Positions 318 to 7,169 are shown, counted from the first letter of the stretch. The stretch is 64,000 nucleotides of DNA from a virus (IMGVR_UViG_3300042898_004347:64001-128000); one strand, 5' to 3'. Notes: generated by a model from the letters alone, not told the origin. A program made the numbers and translations.

Positions 318-391
318 TGGATGCTGGGGATGGAATTGAACCATCAGCTCCGCGTTATGAGCGCGACGAGTTACCGTTACTCTACCCGGCA
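318..391 (-). tRNA. tRNA-Met(CAT), probably initiator type
   Basis: Cloverleaf, anticodon loop CTCATAA, GTTCAAT T-loop, encoded CCA. Confidence 0.85.
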
Positions 392-400
392 ATAAAATGA

Positions 401-805
401 ATTTGGGAGGGTTAATGATTACCTCCATCTAACAATTGTGTTTTCAGTTATTCAGTCATATGGTGCCGTCGCACCTTAATAGTCCGCTTGTCATTGTATT
501 TCAGGCTTACAAGACTATACCTCTGGTTGCTTAGGTTGGCCGACCCAAGTTTTCAGCGTAGTACCTTACTTACTTACACATTGTAGAACTGAGTGATGTT
601 CTTCACACCACCCATGCGTTAGCCCCATTAGAAAGGCTTTCTTCCGCCACAAAAATTTCTCTCATGTTACGGCAACGTCAGCATACAGTCCCGACCAGTG
701 CCTATTCCACTATTATCGAGATTTTACAACTGTTGCAGACCGTGGTGACAATAGGTTCGTGAAACCAGTTGCCGCATGAGAGTCCAAGGTGATCAAACCT
801 TGGAA
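401..805 (-). ncRNA. Large structured ncRNA, GOLLD-like candidate
   Basis: About 400 nt without an ORF. Nested inverted repeats: CTCTCATG..CGGCAAC 659-676 with 768-782, CCAAGGT/ACCTTGG 784-803, GGTGC/GCACC 462-475. Has its own promoter and boxA-like element and sits next to tRNAs. Confidence 0.65.
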
Positions 806-838
806 AGTATTTAAAAGAACGAAATTGACTATGGTACA

Positions 839-867
839 ATCATACACATGTCACATCAAAAGTAAAC
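839..867 (-). promoter_or_regulatory. T4-type early promoter GTTTAC-N17-TATGAT
   Basis: Minus strand GTTTAC (867-862) and TATGAT (844-839). Confidence 0.7.
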
Positions 868-879
868 AACAAAATGTGA

Positions 880-1503
880 TTATGGCATATATGTTTTACA
901 TTCATCTAATGATAAAATTATCTTTAAATTGGGCATAAGTTTTTTAATAACATCTAATTTTGTTTTTTGAACATTCGCCGCGTGCGGATTTTTAGGATCG
1001 AGATATATGTCATGATCCGGCAGATAAAAATCAGGAAAATAATTATGAGTTCTACCATCAATCATTACATATGAAATAGGAACTTTGGGACGAATCCAAT
1101 TGATTCCTATTTCATCCAACCGCATTGCTAGAATTTCTTCCCAGGATGAATCTAAAGTGACAATAGTTCCATCTTTCTTTGTATATTTTCTTATAGATCT
1201 AACTAAACGTCTATGTTTTGATGCTAGTGCTTTTTGACTCATTAATGCCTTACTTTCAGGGCTATGAGTTTTTCCTAAATTTGGACTTGAATAATCGACA
1301 TTATCATATTTCCCATCAGCATGAGCTTTTTTAATTCCAGCAATACGCTTTGCTTTAGCTTCAGGAGTGCACATTTGAGTGCAGTTGTTACTCATTTGAT
1401 ACGAAGATCGTTTTGGGTTTTCTTTACACCACCTACTATGATTTGCTTTATTAGCAGTTGATAGACCTTCAAAATCCTTTTTACAGTATTTACATTTAAA
1501 CAT
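880..1503 (-). CDS. Free-standing homing endonuclease (Zn-finger + NUMOD3 + PD-(D/E)XK/TnsA-like domain)
   Basis: CKYC..H..C N-terminus, GKTHSPESKALMS NUMOD3-like motif, DSSWE...YFPDFYLP...YLDPKN catalytic motif; AT-rich. Confidence 0.8.
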   Translation of the reverse strand: MFKCKYCKKDFEGLSTANKANHSRWCKENPKRSSYQMSNNCTQMCTPEAKAKRIAGIKKAHADGKYDNVDYSSPNLGKTHSPESKALMSQKALASKHRRLVRSIRKYTKKDGTIVTLDSSWEEILAMRLDEIGINWIRPKVPISYVMIDGRTHNYFPDFYLPDHDIYLDPKNPHAANVQKTKLDVIKKLMPNLKIILSLDECKTYMP

Positions 1504-1516
1504 ATTTTATAGAATT

Positions 1517-1591
1517 TGGTGCGTCTACCAAGACTCGAACTTGGAACAGGAGCTTAGAAGACTCTTATGATAGCCGTTTCACCATAGACGC
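1517..1591 (-). tRNA. tRNA-Arg(TCT)
   Basis: Cloverleaf, loop CTTCTAA, CCA end. Confidence 0.88.
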
Positions 1592-1600
1592 TTATATGTT

Positions 1601-1608
1601 TATTTATA
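1601..1608 (-). promoter_or_regulatory. T4 late promoter TATAAATA
   Basis: Exact gp55 consensus upstream of tRNA-Arg and the endonuclease. Confidence 0.7.
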
Positions 1609-1613
1609 ACAAT

Positions 1614-1648
1614 GAAGATTTCTGTCCTATCCGTTGAACGATCGAGGC
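1614..1648 (-). pseudogene. 5' half of a tRNA-Arg, truncated in the anticodon loop
   Basis: GCCTCGATCGTTCAACGGATAGGACAGAAATCTTC: acceptor 5' strand, D-arm and anticodon stem ending CT-TC, then unrelated sequence. Confidence 0.8.
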
Positions 1649-1652
1649 AGAA

Positions 1653-1727
1653 TGGAGCGGAAAAAGAGACTCGAACTCTCAACATCTTCGTTGGCAACGA
1701 AGTGCTCTACCATTGAGCTATTTCCGC
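1653..1727 (-). tRNA. tRNA-Gly(GCC)
   Basis: GCGGAAA acceptor, loop TTGCCAA, TCCA end. Confidence 0.93.
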
Positions 1728-1748
1728 GTGGAGTATAAATACATTCCT

Positions 1749-2168
1749 ATGTACCAATATTCTTGCAAAATTAATAAAGTGATTGACGGCGATACTGTTG
1801 AGATCGACCTCGACCTCGGATTCAATATCGTTCTTGCTGGCCAACGAGTCAGAATGGTTGGAGTAGACACTCCTGAGTCCCGTACTGCTGATAAAGAAGA
1901 AAAGGCTCGAGGCCTCTTATCAAAGAAGAAACTTGCTGAAAAACTTCCAGCGGGTTCCTATCAAAAGATCAATACTCAGAAACCCGGAGCAAATGACGAT
2001 AAGTTTGGCCGTATTCTCGGTATCTTCATCCTGGAAGATGGAACAAATGTTAACGAGTGGCTCATCGAGAACAATTACGCGGTAAAATATCTTGGCGAGA
2101 ATAAAGAACTCGTCCAAGAAGCCCATGCAGCAAATAAGAAAATTCTTATTCGCCGTGGCGAACTTTAA
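1749..2168 (+). CDS. Thermonuclease (SNase-like) family nuclease
   Basis: VIDGDT, VRMVGVDTPE, DKFGRIL motifs. True start is probably MYQY at 1749, after TATAAATA at 1734-1741. Confidence 0.9.
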   Translation: MYQYSCKINKVIDGDTVEIDLDLGFNIVLAGQRVRMVGVDTPESRTADKEEKARGLLSKKKLAEKLPAGSYQKINTQKPGANDDKFGRILGIFILEDGTNVNEWLIENNYAVKYLGENKELVQEAHAANKKILIRRGEL

Positions 2169-2171
2169 GCC

Positions 2172-2420
2172 TTAGTAGCCCACAGATACCATGCGGCAAG
2201 ATGTCGCAGCGGTAATTGTAGAAAGGGGTGACTTTTCGAGATAGAGAACTTCACCCGGAGCAATCGTCACTGTGGTCGTGGCGGCGTCTGCAGTCGTAAC
2301 CGTAAGAAGTACCGCTGTGCCGTTGTTATTATAAACGCGTACGAGTGAGGCGGATCCGATAGTTGATGCTGTTGAAACTGCAGCGTCTGTTCCCTGAAGA
2401 TTGAGAATTGTTGAAATCAT
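2172..2420 (-). CDS. Small late protein (possibly virion)
   Basis: Thr/Ala-rich beta-type ORF; TATAAATA at 2446-2453. Confidence 0.7.
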   Translation of the reverse strand: MISTILNLQGTDAAVSTASTIGSASLVRVYNNNGTAVLLTVTTADAATTTVTIAPGEVLYLEKSPLSTITAATSCRMVSVGY

Positions 2421-2457
2421 TGAATTTTAGGATTAAGGTGTAATCTATTTATATGAA

Positions 2458-2535
2458 TGGTACCCACGGTGGGAGTCGAACCCACAGTTGAACACATTTT
2501 AAGTGTGTTGTGTCTACCAATTCCACCACGAGGGC
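2458..2535 (-). tRNA. tRNA-Leu(TAA), short variable region
   Basis: GTGGAATTGGTAGACAC Leu-type D-arm, loop CTTAAAA. Confidence 0.88.
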
Positions 2536-2545
2536 ATAACATAAA

Positions 2546-2620
2546 TGGTACCACTACGGGGAATCGAACCCCGATTACTTGGATGAAAACCAAGTGTCCT
2601 AACCGTTAGACGATAGCGGC
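2546..2620 (-). tRNA. tRNA-Glu(TTC)
   Basis: Cloverleaf, loop TTTTCAT, CCA. Confidence 0.92.
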
Positions 2621-2625
2621 AAAAT

Positions 2626-2699
2626 TGGCTCCCCGACCAGGTTTCGAACCTAGACTAGATGAGTCAAAGTCATCTGTGCTACCATTACACAATCAGGGA
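2626..2699 (-). tRNA. tRNA-Gln(TTG)
   Basis: Cloverleaf, loop CTTTGAC, GCCA. Confidence 0.92.
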
Positions 2700-2702
2700 A
2701 AA

Positions 2703-2779
2703 TGGTGGACCCGGTGGGATTTTAACCCACGATCTAGGGATTATGAGTCCCTTGCTTTAGGACACTAAGCTACAAGTCC
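2703..2779 (-). tRNA. tRNA-CAT, probably Ile2 (lysidine type)
   Basis: Loop CTCATAA; body resembles ileX-type tRNAs; atypical T-loop TTAAAAT. Confidence 0.75.
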
Positions 2780-2785
2780 TTAAAA

Positions 2786-2860
2786 TGGCTGGCAAAGTAG
2801 GACTCGAACCTACAACCCTCGCATTAACAGTGCGATGCTCTGCCATTGAGCTATATGCCA
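2786..2860 (-). tRNA. tRNA-Asn(GTT)
   Basis: Loop CTGTTAA, GCCA. Confidence 0.92.
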
Positions 2861-2864
2861 AAAA

Positions 2865-3095
2865 TTATCCGTCGTTGCCAATGGCACTTACGGGACAGCC
2901 CTCGAGGGCTTCCATACACATGTCAATGCCTGCTTGTGTTGTGGGTTGAGTATGTACATATGAAAAGCCGCCATCTTCTTCACGAGTAAAGAAGTCTGGA
3001 GCAGTTTCACGGCAAAGGTCGCAGTCGATACACTGAGTGTCGACATAAAACTTCCCTGCTGCGTTCTGTGAATATCTATCCGTATTGTTTGCCAT
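2865..3095 (-). CDS. Monocluster ferredoxin
   Basis: CIDCDLC...CP motif. Start MANN at 3095, because the upstream in-frame part overlaps tRNA-Pro. Confidence 0.92.
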   Translation of the reverse strand: MANNTDRYSQNAAGKFYVDTQCIDCDLCRETAPDFFTREEDGGFSYVHTQPTTQAGIDMCMEALEGCPVSAIGNDG

Positions 3096-3117
3096 AATGT
3101 ATTTACGATTTGATAAT

Positions 3118-3194
3118 TGGTCGGGGCGATAGGATTCGAACCTACGACCTTCTGGTCCCAAACCAGACGCTCTACCAAGCTGAGCTACACCCCG
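3118..3194 (-). tRNA. tRNA-Pro(TGG)
   Basis: CGGGGTG acceptor, loop TTTGGGA. Confidence 0.94.
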
Positions 3195-3199
3195 AGAAA

Positions 3200-3319
3200 T
3201 TACTTCTTCAGTTTAGACTGAACGACTTCAACTGCAGCATCAACCTTTGCTTTGTTTTTGCGAGCAACAAGAAGACCAGCAACGAAACCGACAATGAGTG
3301 CGAGGAGTAATGAGAACAT
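3200..3319 (-). CDS. 39-aa single-TM late protein (MFSLLLALIVGFVAGLLVARKNK...)
   Basis: Hand translation; hydrophobic N-terminus and basic tail; TATAAATA at 3353-3360. Confidence 0.7.
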   Translation of the reverse strand: MFSLLLALIVGFVAGLLVARKNKAKVDAAVEVVQSKLKK

Positions 3320-3367
3320 ATGTTTATTGAGTTGAGGTTAACCGTACATATCTATTTATATGTAAAA

Positions 3368-3445
3368 TGGCGGGATGGACGGGACTCGAACCCGCGACCT
3401 TCTGCGTGACAGGCAGACGCTCTAAACCAGCTGAGCTACCACCCC
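3368..3445 (-). tRNA. tRNA-Asp(GTC)
   Basis: Loop CTGTCAC, GCCA. Confidence 0.94.
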
Positions 3446-3529
3446 TAAAGTTTCACACAGCCATTATTGCCATTGATGTAAATCAAGAGGACTACTGTGT
3501 ATGTTAAATTATTTGAATAGATGTAGCTT

Positions 3530-3902
3530 TGCTTTATATGACCACACTTCAGCGAGTTTCTTATTTACGCATAAGCTCCAACACGTTTAATGTTTCCCAA
3601 TAAACGTACTGTTATGAACTCAGAGGCTTTTCGTTACTTCCATGTTTTTCCGCTGACGGTTAGACCCCGTGCTCGTACCGAAGATGGAAACAATCTTCTA
3701 CATTCCGAGCTGCTATTCAAAATTGGATCCTTCTGCCATACAAGTCTTCCAGAACATTTCCAGAAGATGAATGCACTTGTATGCGTTACACTCTTAAACC
3801 CCCTAAAGGAACGCAACCTTTTAAATATGTGATTGCCCAGTTTCTTAGCAACATGGAGCTTTACCTTAGCGCCGGCGAATGTAACGGTCTGCATAAACAC
3901 AG
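3530..3902 (-). ncRNA. Large structured ncRNA of unknown class
   Basis: Terminal 5'/3' helix plus multiple internal helices (see findings); lies between tRNA-Trp and tRNA-Asp. Confidence 0.55.
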
Positions 3903-3909
3903 AAGAAAT

Positions 3910-3984
3910 TGGCACGGATGGAGGGAATCGCACCCTCATAAGGCAGTTTTGGAGACTGCTGCACTACTAATGTACCACATCCGT
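3910..3984 (-). tRNA. tRNA-Trp(CCA)
   Basis: Loop CTCCAAA; atypical D and T loops. Confidence 0.85.
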
Positions 3985-4066
3985 AAAAATTAAAGCAGCG
4001 GTAACCTAATCCGCGGATGGACGAACCGATTCCAGGGTTCAAACATGACCCATACTTTAAAATAAA

Positions 4067-4144
4067 TGGGGCGATCAACGGGGCTTGAACCCGTAACCCC
4101 GAAAATCACAATCTCGTGCTCTGGCCAATTGAGCTATGATCGCC
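4067..4144 (-). tRNA. tRNA-His(GTG)
   Basis: Loop TTGTGAT, G-1:C73 pair, CCCA end. Confidence 0.9.
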
Positions 4145-4149
4145 GTAAA

Positions 4150-4226
4150 TGGAGCGCCAGACAGGGATCGAACCTGCATGTGACTGTTTTGCAAACAGAA
4201 GTTTAGCCTTTCAACAACACTGGCGC
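4150..4226 (-). tRNA. tRNA-Cys(GCA)
   Basis: Loop TTGCAAA, U73 discriminator. Confidence 0.85.
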
Positions 4227-4232
4227 TTAAAA

Positions 4233-4308
4233 TGGTAGTAGCGGTGGGAATTGAACCCACATAAAAGAGCTTATGAAACTCTTGCCTTGACCAATCGACC
4301 TCGCTACT
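4233..4308 (-). tRNA. tRNA-Met(CAT), probably elongator
   Basis: Loop TTCATAA, CCA. Confidence 0.82.
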
Positions 4309-4431
4309 GTAAATTAATTATTCGGTCGGAACTTCAATCGAAGGTCTTATCGACCCGCGCGGCTCACTAAGCCGTCCTTCACGTCGTTAAGTGGTACGAC
4401 AACACGGACTTCTACCGTTAACCGAATAAAA

Positions 4432-4507
4432 TGGTGGGAGCTTCTGGTATCGATCCAGATTCTTGCCGTCTTCAGCGGCACGTGAGCACCTGCTTCACCA
4501 AACTCCC
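4432..4507 (-). tRNA. tRNA-Phe(GAA)
   Basis: Loop CTGAAGA, CCA. Confidence 0.85.
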
Positions 4508-4512
4508 TAAAG

Positions 4513-4588
4513 TGGTAGACCCGGAAGGATTCGAACCTTCAATACAACGTTCGTAGCGTTGCGTGATAATCCGTTTCACTACGGGTCT
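4513..4588 (-). tRNA. tRNA-Arg(ACG)
   Basis: Loop CTACGAA, CCA. Confidence 0.92.
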
Positions 4589-4695
4589 ATAAAAATGAGT
4601 AGTACCGATTGTTCCGAGCACGGTTACCTGTTGTTCAACATACTGAATGATAACACCGACTCCTGTTTTACGAACAACTGGATTTCTACTCAAAA

Positions 4696-4781
4696 TGGTG
4701 GGCACGCTTGGACTCGAACCAAGGGTTATCCGAAGAGGGGACATTTACAGTGTCCTGCAATAGCCGCTATGCGACGCGCCC
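4696..4781 (-). tRNA. tRNA-Tyr(GTA)
   Basis: Loop CTGTAAA, long variable arm. Confidence 0.92.
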
Positions 4782-4837
4782 GAAAAATTGTCATTTGAGT
4801 CAACCTCAATTTCGCCAATGACGTGGCGTTTGCAAAA

Positions 4838-4912
4838 TGGAGCGGTATCCGGGTAACGATCCCAGAACTCAAGTTTGGAAAACTCGCGTGTATCCATTAA
4901 CACCTATACCGC
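4838..4912 (-). tRNA. tRNA-Gly(TCC)
   Basis: Loop TTTCCAA, TCCA. Confidence 0.88.
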
Positions 4913-4917
4913 AAAAC

Positions 4918-4991
4918 TGGTGCCTTCGACAAGAATCGAACTTGTGACTAGCGCTTATCAAGCGCTGGTTATACCGTTTAACTACAAAGGC
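4918..4991 (-). tRNA. tRNA-Ile(GAT)
   Basis: Loop TTGATAA; 5' end overlaps the stop codon of the upstream endonuclease. Confidence 0.9.
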
Positions 4992-5583
4992 TTTTAATAT
5001 ATTCCACATTTATATCTTTATTTAAAAGAATGATTATTTTTACAGAATTCTGTTTTGCTGCTAATTGTATTTTTTCTGCATCCAAAATGGCTTTATAATC
5101 GTTTTTAGGATCTAAATATAAATCATATTCTGTTAGATAGAAATCAGCAAAATATCTTTTATTGTTGTATTTTAATGATTTCGGTCGAATCCATTTTATA
5201 TTCAATTCATTTAATAATGAACTACATCTTAATTCATATGTACTCTGTAGTGTAACTTCATTACCATATGAATCATTTACTTTAAATTTTTTACTTCTTC
5301 CAGCCAAAGGTTGGTAACCACCTAAACCTCGATCTTTTGCTATTTTTGATAATAGTGATTTAGTTTCTTGAGTATGCGCAGTTCCTGTACCGGGACCAGT
5401 TTTTGGTCTAAAACATCTAACATCGGACAATACAGTTTTACCTTTATTCCATGCAACCCTCTCTACTTTAGGTTTAATGACTTTAGGTTTATCGTGCCAC
5501 TTTAAATGACGATTGAATGCGAAAAGCGATACGGCATTTCCACATTTAGGACAAATAGATGTTGTTGTTTTACCTTTGGGCAT
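4978..5583 (-). CDS. Free-standing homing endonuclease (Zn-finger + NUMOD3 + PD-(D/E)XK), paralog of 880-1503
   Basis: CPKC..H..H, AWNKG, HTQETK, QSTYE...YFADFYL...YLDPKN. Start MPKG at 5583 after TATAAATA at 5589-5596; AT-rich. Confidence 0.8.
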   Translation of the reverse strand: MPKGKTTTSICPKCGNAVSLFAFNRHLKWHDKPKVIKPKVERVAWNKGKTVLSDVRCFRPKTGPGTGTAHTQETKSLLSKIAKDRGLGGYQPLAGRSKKFKVNDSYGNEVTLQSTYELRCSSLLNELNIKWIRPKSLKYNNKRYFADFYLTEYDLYLDPKNDYKAILDAEKIQLAAKQNSVKIIILLNKDINVEYIKSLCS

Positions 5584-5601
5584 TAATCTATTTATAGAGG
5601 T

Positions 5602-5634
5602 AGACGATGCTCTAACCAACTGAGCTACTAGACC
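5602..5634 (-). pseudogene. 5' half tRNA (Ile-like), truncated at the anticodon loop
   Basis: GGTCTAGTAGCTCAGTTGGTTAGAGCATCGTCT followed directly by the late promoter; no complementary 3' acceptor strand downstream. Confidence 0.8.
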
Positions 5635-5639
5635 GAAAA

Positions 5640-5729
5640 TGGCGGAAATAGAAGGATTCGAACCTTCGGGGCTTTTGAGGACCCGAGACTTTAGCAAAGT
5701 CTTGCCTTAAACCACTCGGCCATATTTCC
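5640..5729 (-). tRNA. tRNA-Ser(GCT)
   Basis: Loop TTGCTAA, long variable arm. Confidence 0.93.
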
Positions 5730-5734
5730 TAAAT

Positions 5735-5824
5735 TGGAGGAAGGGGTGGGATTCGAACCCACGGTCGTTTTTAGGCGACTCAAGTTTTCAAGACTAGCGC
5801 CTTAAACCACTCAGCCACCCTTCC
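5735..5824 (-). tRNA. tRNA-Ser(TGA)
   Basis: Loop CTTGAAA, long variable arm. Confidence 0.93.
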
Positions 5825-5830
5825 TTAAAA

Positions 5831-5906
5831 TGGAGCCCTCGGACGGGATCGAACCGACGACAACCAGTTTACAAAACTGGTGCTCTACCAACTGAGCTAC
5901 AAGGGC
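5831..5906 (-). tRNA. tRNA-Thr(TGT)
   Basis: Loop TTTGTAA, TCCA. Confidence 0.93.
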
Positions 5907-6224
5907 GAAATTGAATCCCACCATGCACCTAGAAGCATTGCTGCTTTCACGGATGAACCCGACATTCAGTGCAGGTAGGAAAATTGGAAAGGTAACGATA
6001 GCTCAGTGTTCTGGCTGCATATCGGTGCAGACGGCATTTCGTTTTTATCTAACACTTAGACCTTAAAAGAGCCCGGCAATTTATTTAAAGACGTCCGGGG
6101 CTCGTCTATTTTTATTTGAAAAAAGAACTAATTTTACCCCTCTCAGCTTGTGCTGGTTTGGATACCCGTTATCGGACGTTTGGACTCCTTAAAGCCGGAG
6201 TCTGGCAGTGAAACTGAAAGTGAT

Positions 6225-6455: not shown

Positions 6456-7169
6456 TTAGTGCATAAAAAGATATGGTTTCCATTCCTCGCGGATACCCAT
6501 ATCCTCGGGGATTTGAACGCCGATCTGGACACGGTTCTTTGGAACCACTTCCTTACCATTAATGTCAAAATACGGGAAAATGTTGTCCTTGGCAGCATTA
6601 CAGTCGCGGCAGGCAAGAACAAGGTTGAACCCGTCATTGGTACCACCCTTTGACTTGGGATGCACGTGATCCTTGGTGGCAACGCAGAAAGGTATCTTTT
6701 TGAGGCAGTACTGACAGGTGCCCTTATAGATGCTGTAAAGACTCCGAAGTGAGGTTTGCTGACCACGACGAACAGTATGTCCGAAGTGAGTAGTGCAGAC
6801 AACGATGGTCGGAATTGCCCATTGCTTTTCTTCGCCACTGATACGGTCCGGAGCGGAACGCAGACATGGCTGGTTGTCAAAGAGTTCTATGGTGTTCTTC
6901 GACCACGAATAACCGTCATTGTCCTCACGACCGTCCCATGGAATTGTGTTACCACTCGCGTCGATACCGTGAGCCCTACCATTCATCATGTGACGCATGC
7001 ACGCACGGGCCGTGAAGAAGGCATAGGCTTGGTAGGAACCGTCGAGCACCAGTGTGGTACGCGCAGAAGCATCAACAGGAGTCAATACATTAACCTGTAA
7101 TTGATTTAACAACTGAAGTGAAGCCTTTTCGTGGTACGTTGTATTTGCGAGCATTAGAGTAAGATTCAC
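6456..7169 (-). CDS. HNH endonuclease (McrA/HNH_5-like); start uncertain
   Basis: CQYC...TKDHVHPKSKGG...NLVLACRDCN. Confidence 0.88.
   Translation of the reverse strand: MNLTLMLANTTYHEKASLQLLNQLQVNVLTPVDASARTTLVLDGSYQAYAFFTARACMRHMMNGRAHGIDASGNTIPWDGREDNDGYSWSKNTIELFDNQPCLRSAPDRISGEEKQWAIPTIVVCTTHFGHTVRRGQQTSLRSLYSIYKGTCQYCLKKIPFCVATKDHVHPKSKGGTNDGFNLVLACRDCNAAKDNIFPYFDINGKEVVPKNRVQIGVQIPEDMGIREEWKPYLFMH

Follow-up and report, generated by a model that had tools for sequence, protein, structure and literature searches.

How does the tRNA array of a phage come to hold, directly one after another, the 5' half of a tRNA-Ile gene, an open reading frame (ORF) for a nuclease, and a second, complete but dissimilar tRNA-Ile gene that also encodes the last codons of that nuclease? 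This arrangement lies on the minus strand of a 64,000-nt stretch of viral DNA, referred to here as the window, which covers positions 64001 to 128000 of the 140-kb IMG/VR record IMGVR_UViG_3300042898_004347; all window coordinates count from its first letter. We consider it likely that the locus is a free-standing homing-endonuclease cassette of a disrupt-and-replace type, in which the nuclease would cleave at the anticodon arm of a tRNA gene and the tRNA carried with it would be immune to the enzyme.

A broken tRNA-Ile gene and its intact counterparts

The locus belongs to an array of 21 tRNA genes called by ARAGORN at window positions 318–5906, minus strand. Read along that strand, tRNA-Ser(GCT) (5729–5640) is followed by a 5-nt spacer, the half tRNA (hereafter the stub), the junction ACCTC, the motif TATAAATA, another 5 nt, the ORF, the overlapping tRNA-Ile(GAT), 5 nt, and tRNA-Gly(TCC). 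The features are as follows.

5602–5634, minus strand: stub, the dead 5' half of the resident tRNA-Ile(GAT), positions 1–32, made up of the acceptor 5' strand, the D-arm, the anticodon-stem 5' strand, and the first loop base; 33/33 to contig L004
5597–5601, minus strand: junction ACCTC, a probable degenerate anticodon remnant plus the cassette left end; together with the adjoining TATAAATA, it can be aligned to the L062 and L113 junctions
5589–5596, minus strand: TATAAATA, a T4-late-promoter-like motif 5 nt before the ATG, read from the sequence
4978–5583, minus strand: endonuclease ORF, 201 amino acids (aa), stop included, ATG at 5583
Within the ORF, minus strand: zinc finger, residues ~10–30; WNKG/NUMOD3-like segment, residues ~43–84; predicted PD-(D/E)XK nuclease domain, residues ~97–201 (nt 4981–5295)
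4918–4991, minus strand: complete foreign tRNA-Ile(GAT), from ARAGORN and Rfam
4978–4991, minus strand: 14-nt overlap of ORF and tRNA, where the last four codons (SLCS) and the stop coincide with the tRNA acceptor 5' strand and the start of the D-arm
4923–5601, minus strand: whole replaced segment, 679 nt, versus ~40 nt (tRNA positions 33–72) in relatives with an empty site

An exact search with the first 27 nt of the stub matched 12 viral contigs, and in L004, L005, L007, and L011 this 27-mer begins an intact 77-nt tRNA-Ile(GAT) in the order Thr(TGT)-Ser(TGA)-Ser(GCT)-Ile-Gly(TCC). The stub is identical to the L004 gene at 33 of 33 positions (blastn-short E 7e-14), with identity ending after T32 of the anticodon loop, and to the tRNA-Ile at the same array position in the other three contigs at 27 of 27. 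When the window was aligned with L007 and L011 by blastn, the left flank (5831–5608) matched at 99.6% and the right flank (4922–4834) at 97.8%, with no alignment between the flanks; both relatives have the intact tRNA-Ile and no ORF, which is thus sporadic at a single locus. A preliminary description made from the window alone had placed a 5' half tRNA at 5634–5602, stopping at the anticodon loop, had assigned it to Ile, and had expected an intact tRNA-Ile in relatives without the ORF. The coordinates are borne out, the conserved gene order confirms the Ile identity by synteny, and the four ORF-less relatives carry the intact gene, as expected; a half tRNA in any of them, the outcome that would have spoken against the description, is absent. 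As a separate observation, the same 27-nt 5' end begins a tRNA-Asp(GTC) in L006, L008–L010, and L012–L015.

The stub receives no tRNA call from ARAGORN or Rfam, and its exact break point has to be read through the five nucleotides that follow it. ACCTC fits the junction consensus of the wider family (YTGAT, then CT) only if two loop nucleotides were lost and T36 changed to C; on this alignment the tRNA of the window was probably first broken behind its anticodon (36|37), where the relatives are broken too, and ACCTC may be a decayed anticodon.

The anticodon loop is a typical position of tRNA introns, and the insert might be intron-like, or the tRNA split, with the stub still used after excision of the insert from the RNA or joining of two RNA halves. 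This is extremely improbable: no group I or II intron matched at E<=10 in 4400–6100, the acceptor strand of the stub cannot pair with the 3' strand of the downstream tRNA, the 140-kb record contains no acceptor-complementary 3' half with a tRNA-like T-loop, the stub anticodon is degenerate in the window and in 9 of 26 relatives, and the downstream tRNA is complete by itself. With no intron family matching the region and no pairing 3' half in 140 kb, we conclude that the stub is a relic rather than an exon, in agreement with the intron-less element first proposed.

An assembly chimera at a repeated tRNA sequence could also bring a stub and a foreign gene together, and the D-arm region is indeed common to very many tRNAs, with a depth of 300–960 over 5602–5642. 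Against this, two contigs from an independent lake-water run (X12), over 4700–5242 and 5218–5824, bridge both junctions with 0 differences, the stretch was detected in many lake-water metagenomes from 2016 to 2024 (18 runs with at least half of the sampled words), and the same layout is found in dozens of other contigs, leaving a chimera with a next to negligible probability. Loose contig ends at 5606–5608 in metagenome runs are mostly tRNAs of other organisms that share the D-arm; one such end (X18) resembles the intact tRNA-Ile of a relative and cannot be tied to the window's phage.

Recurrence of the arrangement across viral contigs

To what extent the arrangement recurs was addressed in 78 homolog loci, comprising 75 viral loci, L016, L017, and the window. 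A complete tRNA overlaps the 3' end of the ORF by 10–53 nt at 49 of the 78 (30 distinct tRNA sequences, 26 of them tRNA-Ile(GAT)), nearly always a tRNA-Ile(GAT); in other relatives the fusion partner is an Arg, His, or Phe tRNA. Upstream of the loci at >=40% identity, an anchored pattern detected a stub in 26 of 38 distinct regions, a count that includes two near-duplicate pairs and at least one stub (L034) that looks spurious; further stubs, including the window's own, are visible by eye beyond this pattern. The stubs end directly after the anticodon (GAT in 17, GAG in 4, GAC in 3), with CT next in 19. They vary between loci in the acceptor and anticodon stems, and the upstream neighbor tRNA varies as well (Ser, Met, Pro, Leu, Val, Arg, Lys, among others). 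Insertion has thus taken place at one and the same point in a wide range of arrays. The preliminary description's view of stub, ORF, and overlapping tRNA-Ile as one element is thus upheld by the same layout, with the same anticodon-loop break, in dozens of independent viral contigs; of about 40 distinct homolog loci, most show a stub that stops directly behind the anticodon, followed by TAAATA, the ORF, and an overlapping tRNA-Ile.

Several loci appear to record later stages in the life of such an element. At L104:7610–7723, the 5' stub of a tRNA runs without a gap into the final two nuclease codons and a cassette-type tRNA-Ile, an arrangement that looks like a cassette derivative that lost its ORF. 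In five contigs (L025–L029, e.g. L025:2458–2531), the anticodon loop of the cassette tRNA reads TTATCAA and is called Asp-ATC, and both the D-stem and the T-stem contain mismatches; we read these as a decaying cassette copy. The stubs of L039 and L060, ~60 nt upstream of the ORF starts, have an atypical, cassette-type D-arm, which suggests serial replacement, with one cassette overwriting the tRNA of an earlier one.

Other loci combine the same parts differently. On a 63-kb lake contig, L113:1447–2208 shares with the window ORF the CTCTATAAATAG leader and the N-terminal 57 aa (72% identity), while Pfam places its nuclease domain in DUF559 (E 1e-8); upstream is a tRNA stub that breaks off at the anticodon stem, and the ORF extends into a complete tRNA-Asp(GTC) up to its anticodon. 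From this composition, L113 appears to be a domain-swapped relative. The window itself holds a second cassette at 880–1648, minus strand, with the order tRNA-Arg-like 5' stub, TATAAATA, complete tRNA-Arg(TCT) (1591–1517), and then an ORF (1503–880) for a 207-aa paralog with 33% identity (E 5e-19) and weak Pfam matches to Phage_endo_I and NUMOD3.

Two more distant homologs were observed next to tRNA genes. L018:1294–1947, in the cultured Stenotrophomonas phage vB_SmaM_Bhz51 (OR797040.1, about 80059–80712), is an unannotated ORF of the same superfamily (33% identity) between tRNA-Ile and tRNA-His; by frame reading it overlaps the tRNA-His by 33 nt, and no stub is visible. L017:2875–3543 is a homolog of 34% identity with a 22-nt overlap with tRNA-Phe(GAA) and a repeated GTTTTAATATGGTA motif upstream; the anticodon placement by ARAGORN is odd in the tRNAs flanking it.

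The nuclease

What kind of protein does the ORF encode? Its GC content (0.26–0.36) is below that of the genome (0.43). Pfam returned no significant family, only a weak NUMOD3 match and no GIY-YIG match at E<=1, and the PHROG matches were 20223, 22215, and 9019, of which the last is annotated as a Holliday junction resolvase and the other two as function unknown. In a large protein collection we found 370 homologs at E<=0.001; among the 120 homologs listed, one has a Pfam domain (a zinc-finger family), and names, where given, are "hypothetical protein". The protein P0001 is 98% identical and lies on a 5.3-kb JGI contig.

Alignment of 22 homologs revealed an N-terminal CxxC...H...C/H zinc finger, a WNKG/NUMOD3-like segment, and a C-terminal domain with invariant E117, D147, D158, and K160. 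A profile of these homologs found nothing among PDB sequences. The AlphaFold2 (AF2) model of the ORF has a predicted local distance difference test score (pLDDT) of 86, reaching 92–98 over residues 101–200, and residues 97–201 gave the following fold matches.

I-Bth0305I catalytic domain (PDB 3r3p): Z 9.0, root-mean-square deviation 2.7 A over 82 residues
Bax1: Z 8.8
VRR-NUC: Z 8.7
Vsr: Z 8.4
TnsA: Z 8.4
Hjc: Z 6.6

The fold of this domain resembles T7 endonuclease I as well. The model thus assigns the C-terminal domain to the PD-(D/E)XK nuclease fold. The invariant residues form the classical E...D...D-x-K set, and the proposal that the ORF is a PD-(D/E)XK endonuclease is borne out by the fold matches and the intact catalytic residues. 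The EDxHD catalytic set is not present, with no invariant histidine in the nuclease domain of the 22 homologs. The ..SLCS C-terminus is conserved across many homologs, ..LCS being kept because it is encoded by the 5' end of the tRNA.

A nuclease need not be selfish, and the ORF could instead benefit the phage, for example by degrading host DNA at tRNA or rRNA operons or by acting in recombination, and simply be co-expressed with the tRNA-Ile. The resolvase annotation of PHROG 9019, the likeness of the fold to Hjc and T7 endonuclease I, and host tRNA-Ile genes with the same ordinary D-arm as the stubs are all consistent with such a role. We nonetheless judge it very unlikely, as the ORF is absent from relatives with flanks 97.8–99.6% identical, has low GC, occupies varied array positions but always with a stub, and has ORF-deleted and decayed derivatives.

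The carried tRNA-Ile

The tRNA at 4991–4918, minus strand, is called tRNA-Ile(GAT) by ARAGORN, scores 65.3 bits with Rfam RF00005 against a cut-off of 29, and has a minimum free energy (MFE) with z -2.7 relative to shuffled sequence. It is the sole tRNA-Ile(GAT) in the 140-kb record. Its acceptor stem pairs with itself at 7 of 7 positions (one G-U) and not with the GGTCTAG of the stub, and its acceptor stem, D-arm, anticodon stem, and T-arm sequences are all unshared with the tRNA-Ile of the relatives. The stop codon of the ORF sits in its D-arm. Two further statements of the preliminary description, that this is an intact, divergent tRNA-Ile(GAT) whose first 14 nt encode the last codons and stop of the ORF, and that its self-complementary acceptor stem sets it apart from a rejoined old gene, are therefore confirmed by ARAGORN, Rfam, the sequence, and the pairing itself.

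Among 19 distinct tRNA-Ile genes in the fused position, the cloverleaf is kept and compensatory changes occur in 19 of 21 pairs, and these tRNAs therefore appear to be maintained as working tRNAs. The carried type is set apart by its D-stem, which has U11–A24 instead of the usual GCTC/GAGC. Of 26 stubs, 19 show the ordinary D-stem, with GAGC in its 3' strand, and most of the fused tRNAs do not. This fits, without proving, an enzyme that reads ordinary D-arm and anticodon-stem DNA and spares the carried allele.

Is the carried tRNA a dedicated replacement or a bystander?

The alternative that deserves the most weight is that the ORF is an ordinary free-standing endonuclease like SegB of phage T4, upstream of its lineage's native tRNA-Ile, with the tRNA a co-converted marker and the stub a by-product of short-homology repair. 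SegB is a free-standing GIY-YIG homing endonuclease in the T4 tRNA cluster that recognises a tRNA-gene motif and co-converts tRNA genes (PMC2330249), and it is known to drag along neighboring tRNA genes (PMC2330249). The carried tRNA type occurs in 16 viral contigs, of which 8 have the nuclease, 7 have the tRNA as an ordinary array member, and 1 (L104) is ORF-deleted. Its occurrence without the nuclease in 7 viral contigs, and the incongruence of the nuclease tree with tRNA type, both favor the SegB-like account. What this account fits poorly is the constant break after the anticodon at ~26 distinct loci with differing stubs, followed by a homologous CT...TAAATA left end, which argues for precise, repeated insertion and not for one-off accidents; in addition, the tRNA begins inside the ORF, which leaves no intervening DNA at which the two could separate. 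We therefore regard a SegB-like origin of the locus as unlikely, and favor the disrupt-and-replace cassette.

Several observations weigh against that preference. In the 7 contigs just mentioned, the carried tRNA type directly follows another tRNA, with no nuclease and no stub, and the carried tRNA-Ile may thus be the donor lineage's native allele, a co-converted flanking marker. A quick maximum-likelihood tree of the nucleases (tRNA-encoded residues removed), which is poorly resolved, required 8 changes of tRNA type compared with 8.8 in shuffles, and the window ORF sits on a long branch of it. Exact-word searches, with a 30-mer from the carried tRNA against viral contigs and with a 35-mer against metagenome contigs, gave no match and hence no near-identical cassette in a different genetic background. 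The window ORF also has no Shine-Dalgarno sequence. In L034, L051, and L070 the nuclease is fused to a tRNA-Ile with an ordinary D-arm, and the D-arm is therefore not the sole determinant of the presumed immunity. Since the nuclease tree does not cluster by tRNA type and the tRNA occurs without the nuclease, strict co-descent of the two is unproven. The first proposal of a dedicated, fused replacement copy thus stands in part: the fused layout recurs widely, and the dedicated pairing is weakened by the same tRNA without the nuclease in 7 contigs and by the tree.

Expression and genomic setting

When would such a nuclease be made? The motif TATAAATA matches the T4 late-promoter consensus. The genome has 24 copies of this 8-mer on the minus strand and 6 on the plus strand, against ~6 expected for each, and TAAATA is found <=50 nt upstream of the ATG at 28 of 37 distinct homolog loci, compared with 3.9% for 50-nt stretches taken at random. 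TATAAATA ends 4–5 nt before the ATG at the window locus and at five others. We infer that it works as a late promoter; at this spacing, late transcription of the T4 type would begin at the start codon or directly beside it, and the nuclease message would hence be leaderless. A candidate hairpin between the TATAAATA region and codons 9–11, enclosing the start codon, was no better than shuffles (z -0.37), and translational occlusion is not claimed. In RNA run X19, contigs were found over the flanking tRNAs and none over 4905–5601, from which we draw no conclusion on expression.

The window encodes a UvsX-like recombinase, a T4-type DNA polymerase, an SbcC/gp46-like nuclease subunit, a DnaB/gp41-like helicase, and a T4-type major head protein, and the virus is therefore a T4-like phage; the completeness of the 140-kb record is estimated at 84%. 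Megablast of 4400–6100 against 50,697 phage records gave no match, and the distant mode gave generic tRNA similarity only. Just upstream of the tRNA array, at 6456–7169, minus strand, an ORF for a 237-aa HNH endonuclease (PHROG 2214 and 2118) is the third nuclease gene in 7 kb.

A possible route of invasion

If the locus is a disrupt-and-replace cassette, its spread could proceed as follows. The nuclease would be made late and, during mixed infection, would cut the ordinary tRNA-Ile gene of a cassette-less phage, at or close to the DNA of the anticodon loop. The cassette would then be copied from the donor by recombinational repair of the T4 type, for which UvsX and gp46-like genes are present, with the conserved tRNA 5' half as the left homology and the tRNA or the downstream array as the right. 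The stub would then be the remnant of the 5' half of the recipient, or of a previous recipient. The incoming tRNA-Ile would keep decoding intact; it has an atypical D-arm and would presumably not be cut. RNase P maturation of this tRNA would remove the last four codons and the stop of the ORF, a cut that probably keeps nuclease output low, as proposed for T4 SegB.

More tentatively, and with somewhat less than even confidence, these cassettes may represent a general, previously undescribed class of portable homing modules that use tRNA-gene halves as homology arms and move between unrelated phages that possess the tRNA gene in question, with a modular nuclease and with serial invasions driving an arms race. 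The modular nuclease is drawn from L113, with its shared N-terminus, DUF559 domain, and tRNA-Asp, and from the relatives with Arg, His, and Phe tRNAs. The cassette-type stubs in L039 and L060 hint at serial invasions. Such an arms race, if true, would explain the orphan tRNA halves and odd D-arms of many phage tRNAs.

Comparison with known systems

How much of this is new? A free-standing homing endonuclease is a kind of element already known, and the closest phage precedent is SegB, whose gene likewise stands on its own among the tRNA genes of a T4-like array. During maturation of tRNA-Arg, cleavage occurs between the last codon and the stop of SegB, which has been proposed as a brake on its expression (PMC2330249); in the window, too, the ORF ends at a tRNA, whose maturation would cut the mRNA at the stop codon. 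The two differ in that SegB is a GIY-YIG enzyme, whereas the window ORF combines a zinc finger with a PD-(D/E)XK domain. SegB recognises a T-loop motif of several tRNA genes, with no half tRNA or gene replacement described, whereas the window cassette is inserted precisely in the anticodon loop of one tRNA species, leaves a stub, and brings a whole substitute gene.

Among nucleases of the same fold, I-Ssp6803I is encoded in a group I intron of the Synechocystis tRNA-fMet gene, with its insertion site in the tRNA anticodon loop. It shares the PD-(D/E)XK catalytic fold with the window ORF but is intron-encoded, restores gene function by RNA splicing, and is a single-domain tetramer; it is not among the fold matches listed for the window ORF, though the two may be related nonetheless. 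PD-(D/E)XK homing endonucleases known to date include I-Ssp6803I and the EDxHD family (PMC3384342), the latter Vsr-like and with a catalytic histidine (PMC3384342). I-Bth0305I, a phage intron homing endonuclease of the EDxHD type, is the best compact structural match to the window nuclease domain, yet the window family has the classical catalytic set and no invariant histidine there.

The closest precedent for bringing along a replacement lies outside viruses. Fungal mitochondrial mORFs, mobile endonuclease ORFs that come with a foreign gene 3' end, have been described in atp6 of Allomyces macrogynus and in atp6, atp9, cox2, and nad3 of Glomus (PMC3630166). As in the window, an intron-less endonuclease ORF sits in a gene, a divergent replacement is supplied for the displaced part, and the native remnant is unused, a resemblance of mechanism only. 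The fungal elements target protein genes, replace the C-terminus only, and encode LAGLIDADG or GIY-YIG nucleases, whereas the window cassette targets a tRNA gene, leaves a 5'-half remnant, and supplies a complete gene; nuclease and target are unrelated. Our literature searches turned up no account of a phage tRNA gene being replaced by a nuclease cassette with half of the tRNA left behind. The architecture and the evolutionary logic proposed in the preliminary description are supported, its biochemistry being a prediction. What the comparison supports as new is a putative homing endonuclease, free-standing and of an unnamed PD-(D/E)XK family, whose cassette is inserted precisely and without an intron in the anticodon loop of a tRNA gene and brings a whole substitute gene.

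Significance for phage tRNA arrays

Phage tRNA arrays are usually read as adaptation to codon usage or as counter-defence; the locus described here points to a third force, in which selfish nucleases overwrite tRNA genes and put an allele of their own in place. If the mechanism holds, it would explain why phage genomes contain orphan tRNA halves and tRNAs of atypical sequence, and would provide a route for tRNA genes between unrelated phages. It would also define a large, unannotated family of PD-(D/E)XK homing endonucleases, with the 370 homologs found here, whose long, conserved, and naturally retargeted recognition sites would make it a practical source of site-specific nucleases. The trick of carrying one's own replacement, seen in fungal mitochondria, would thereby extend from protein genes to viral RNA genes.

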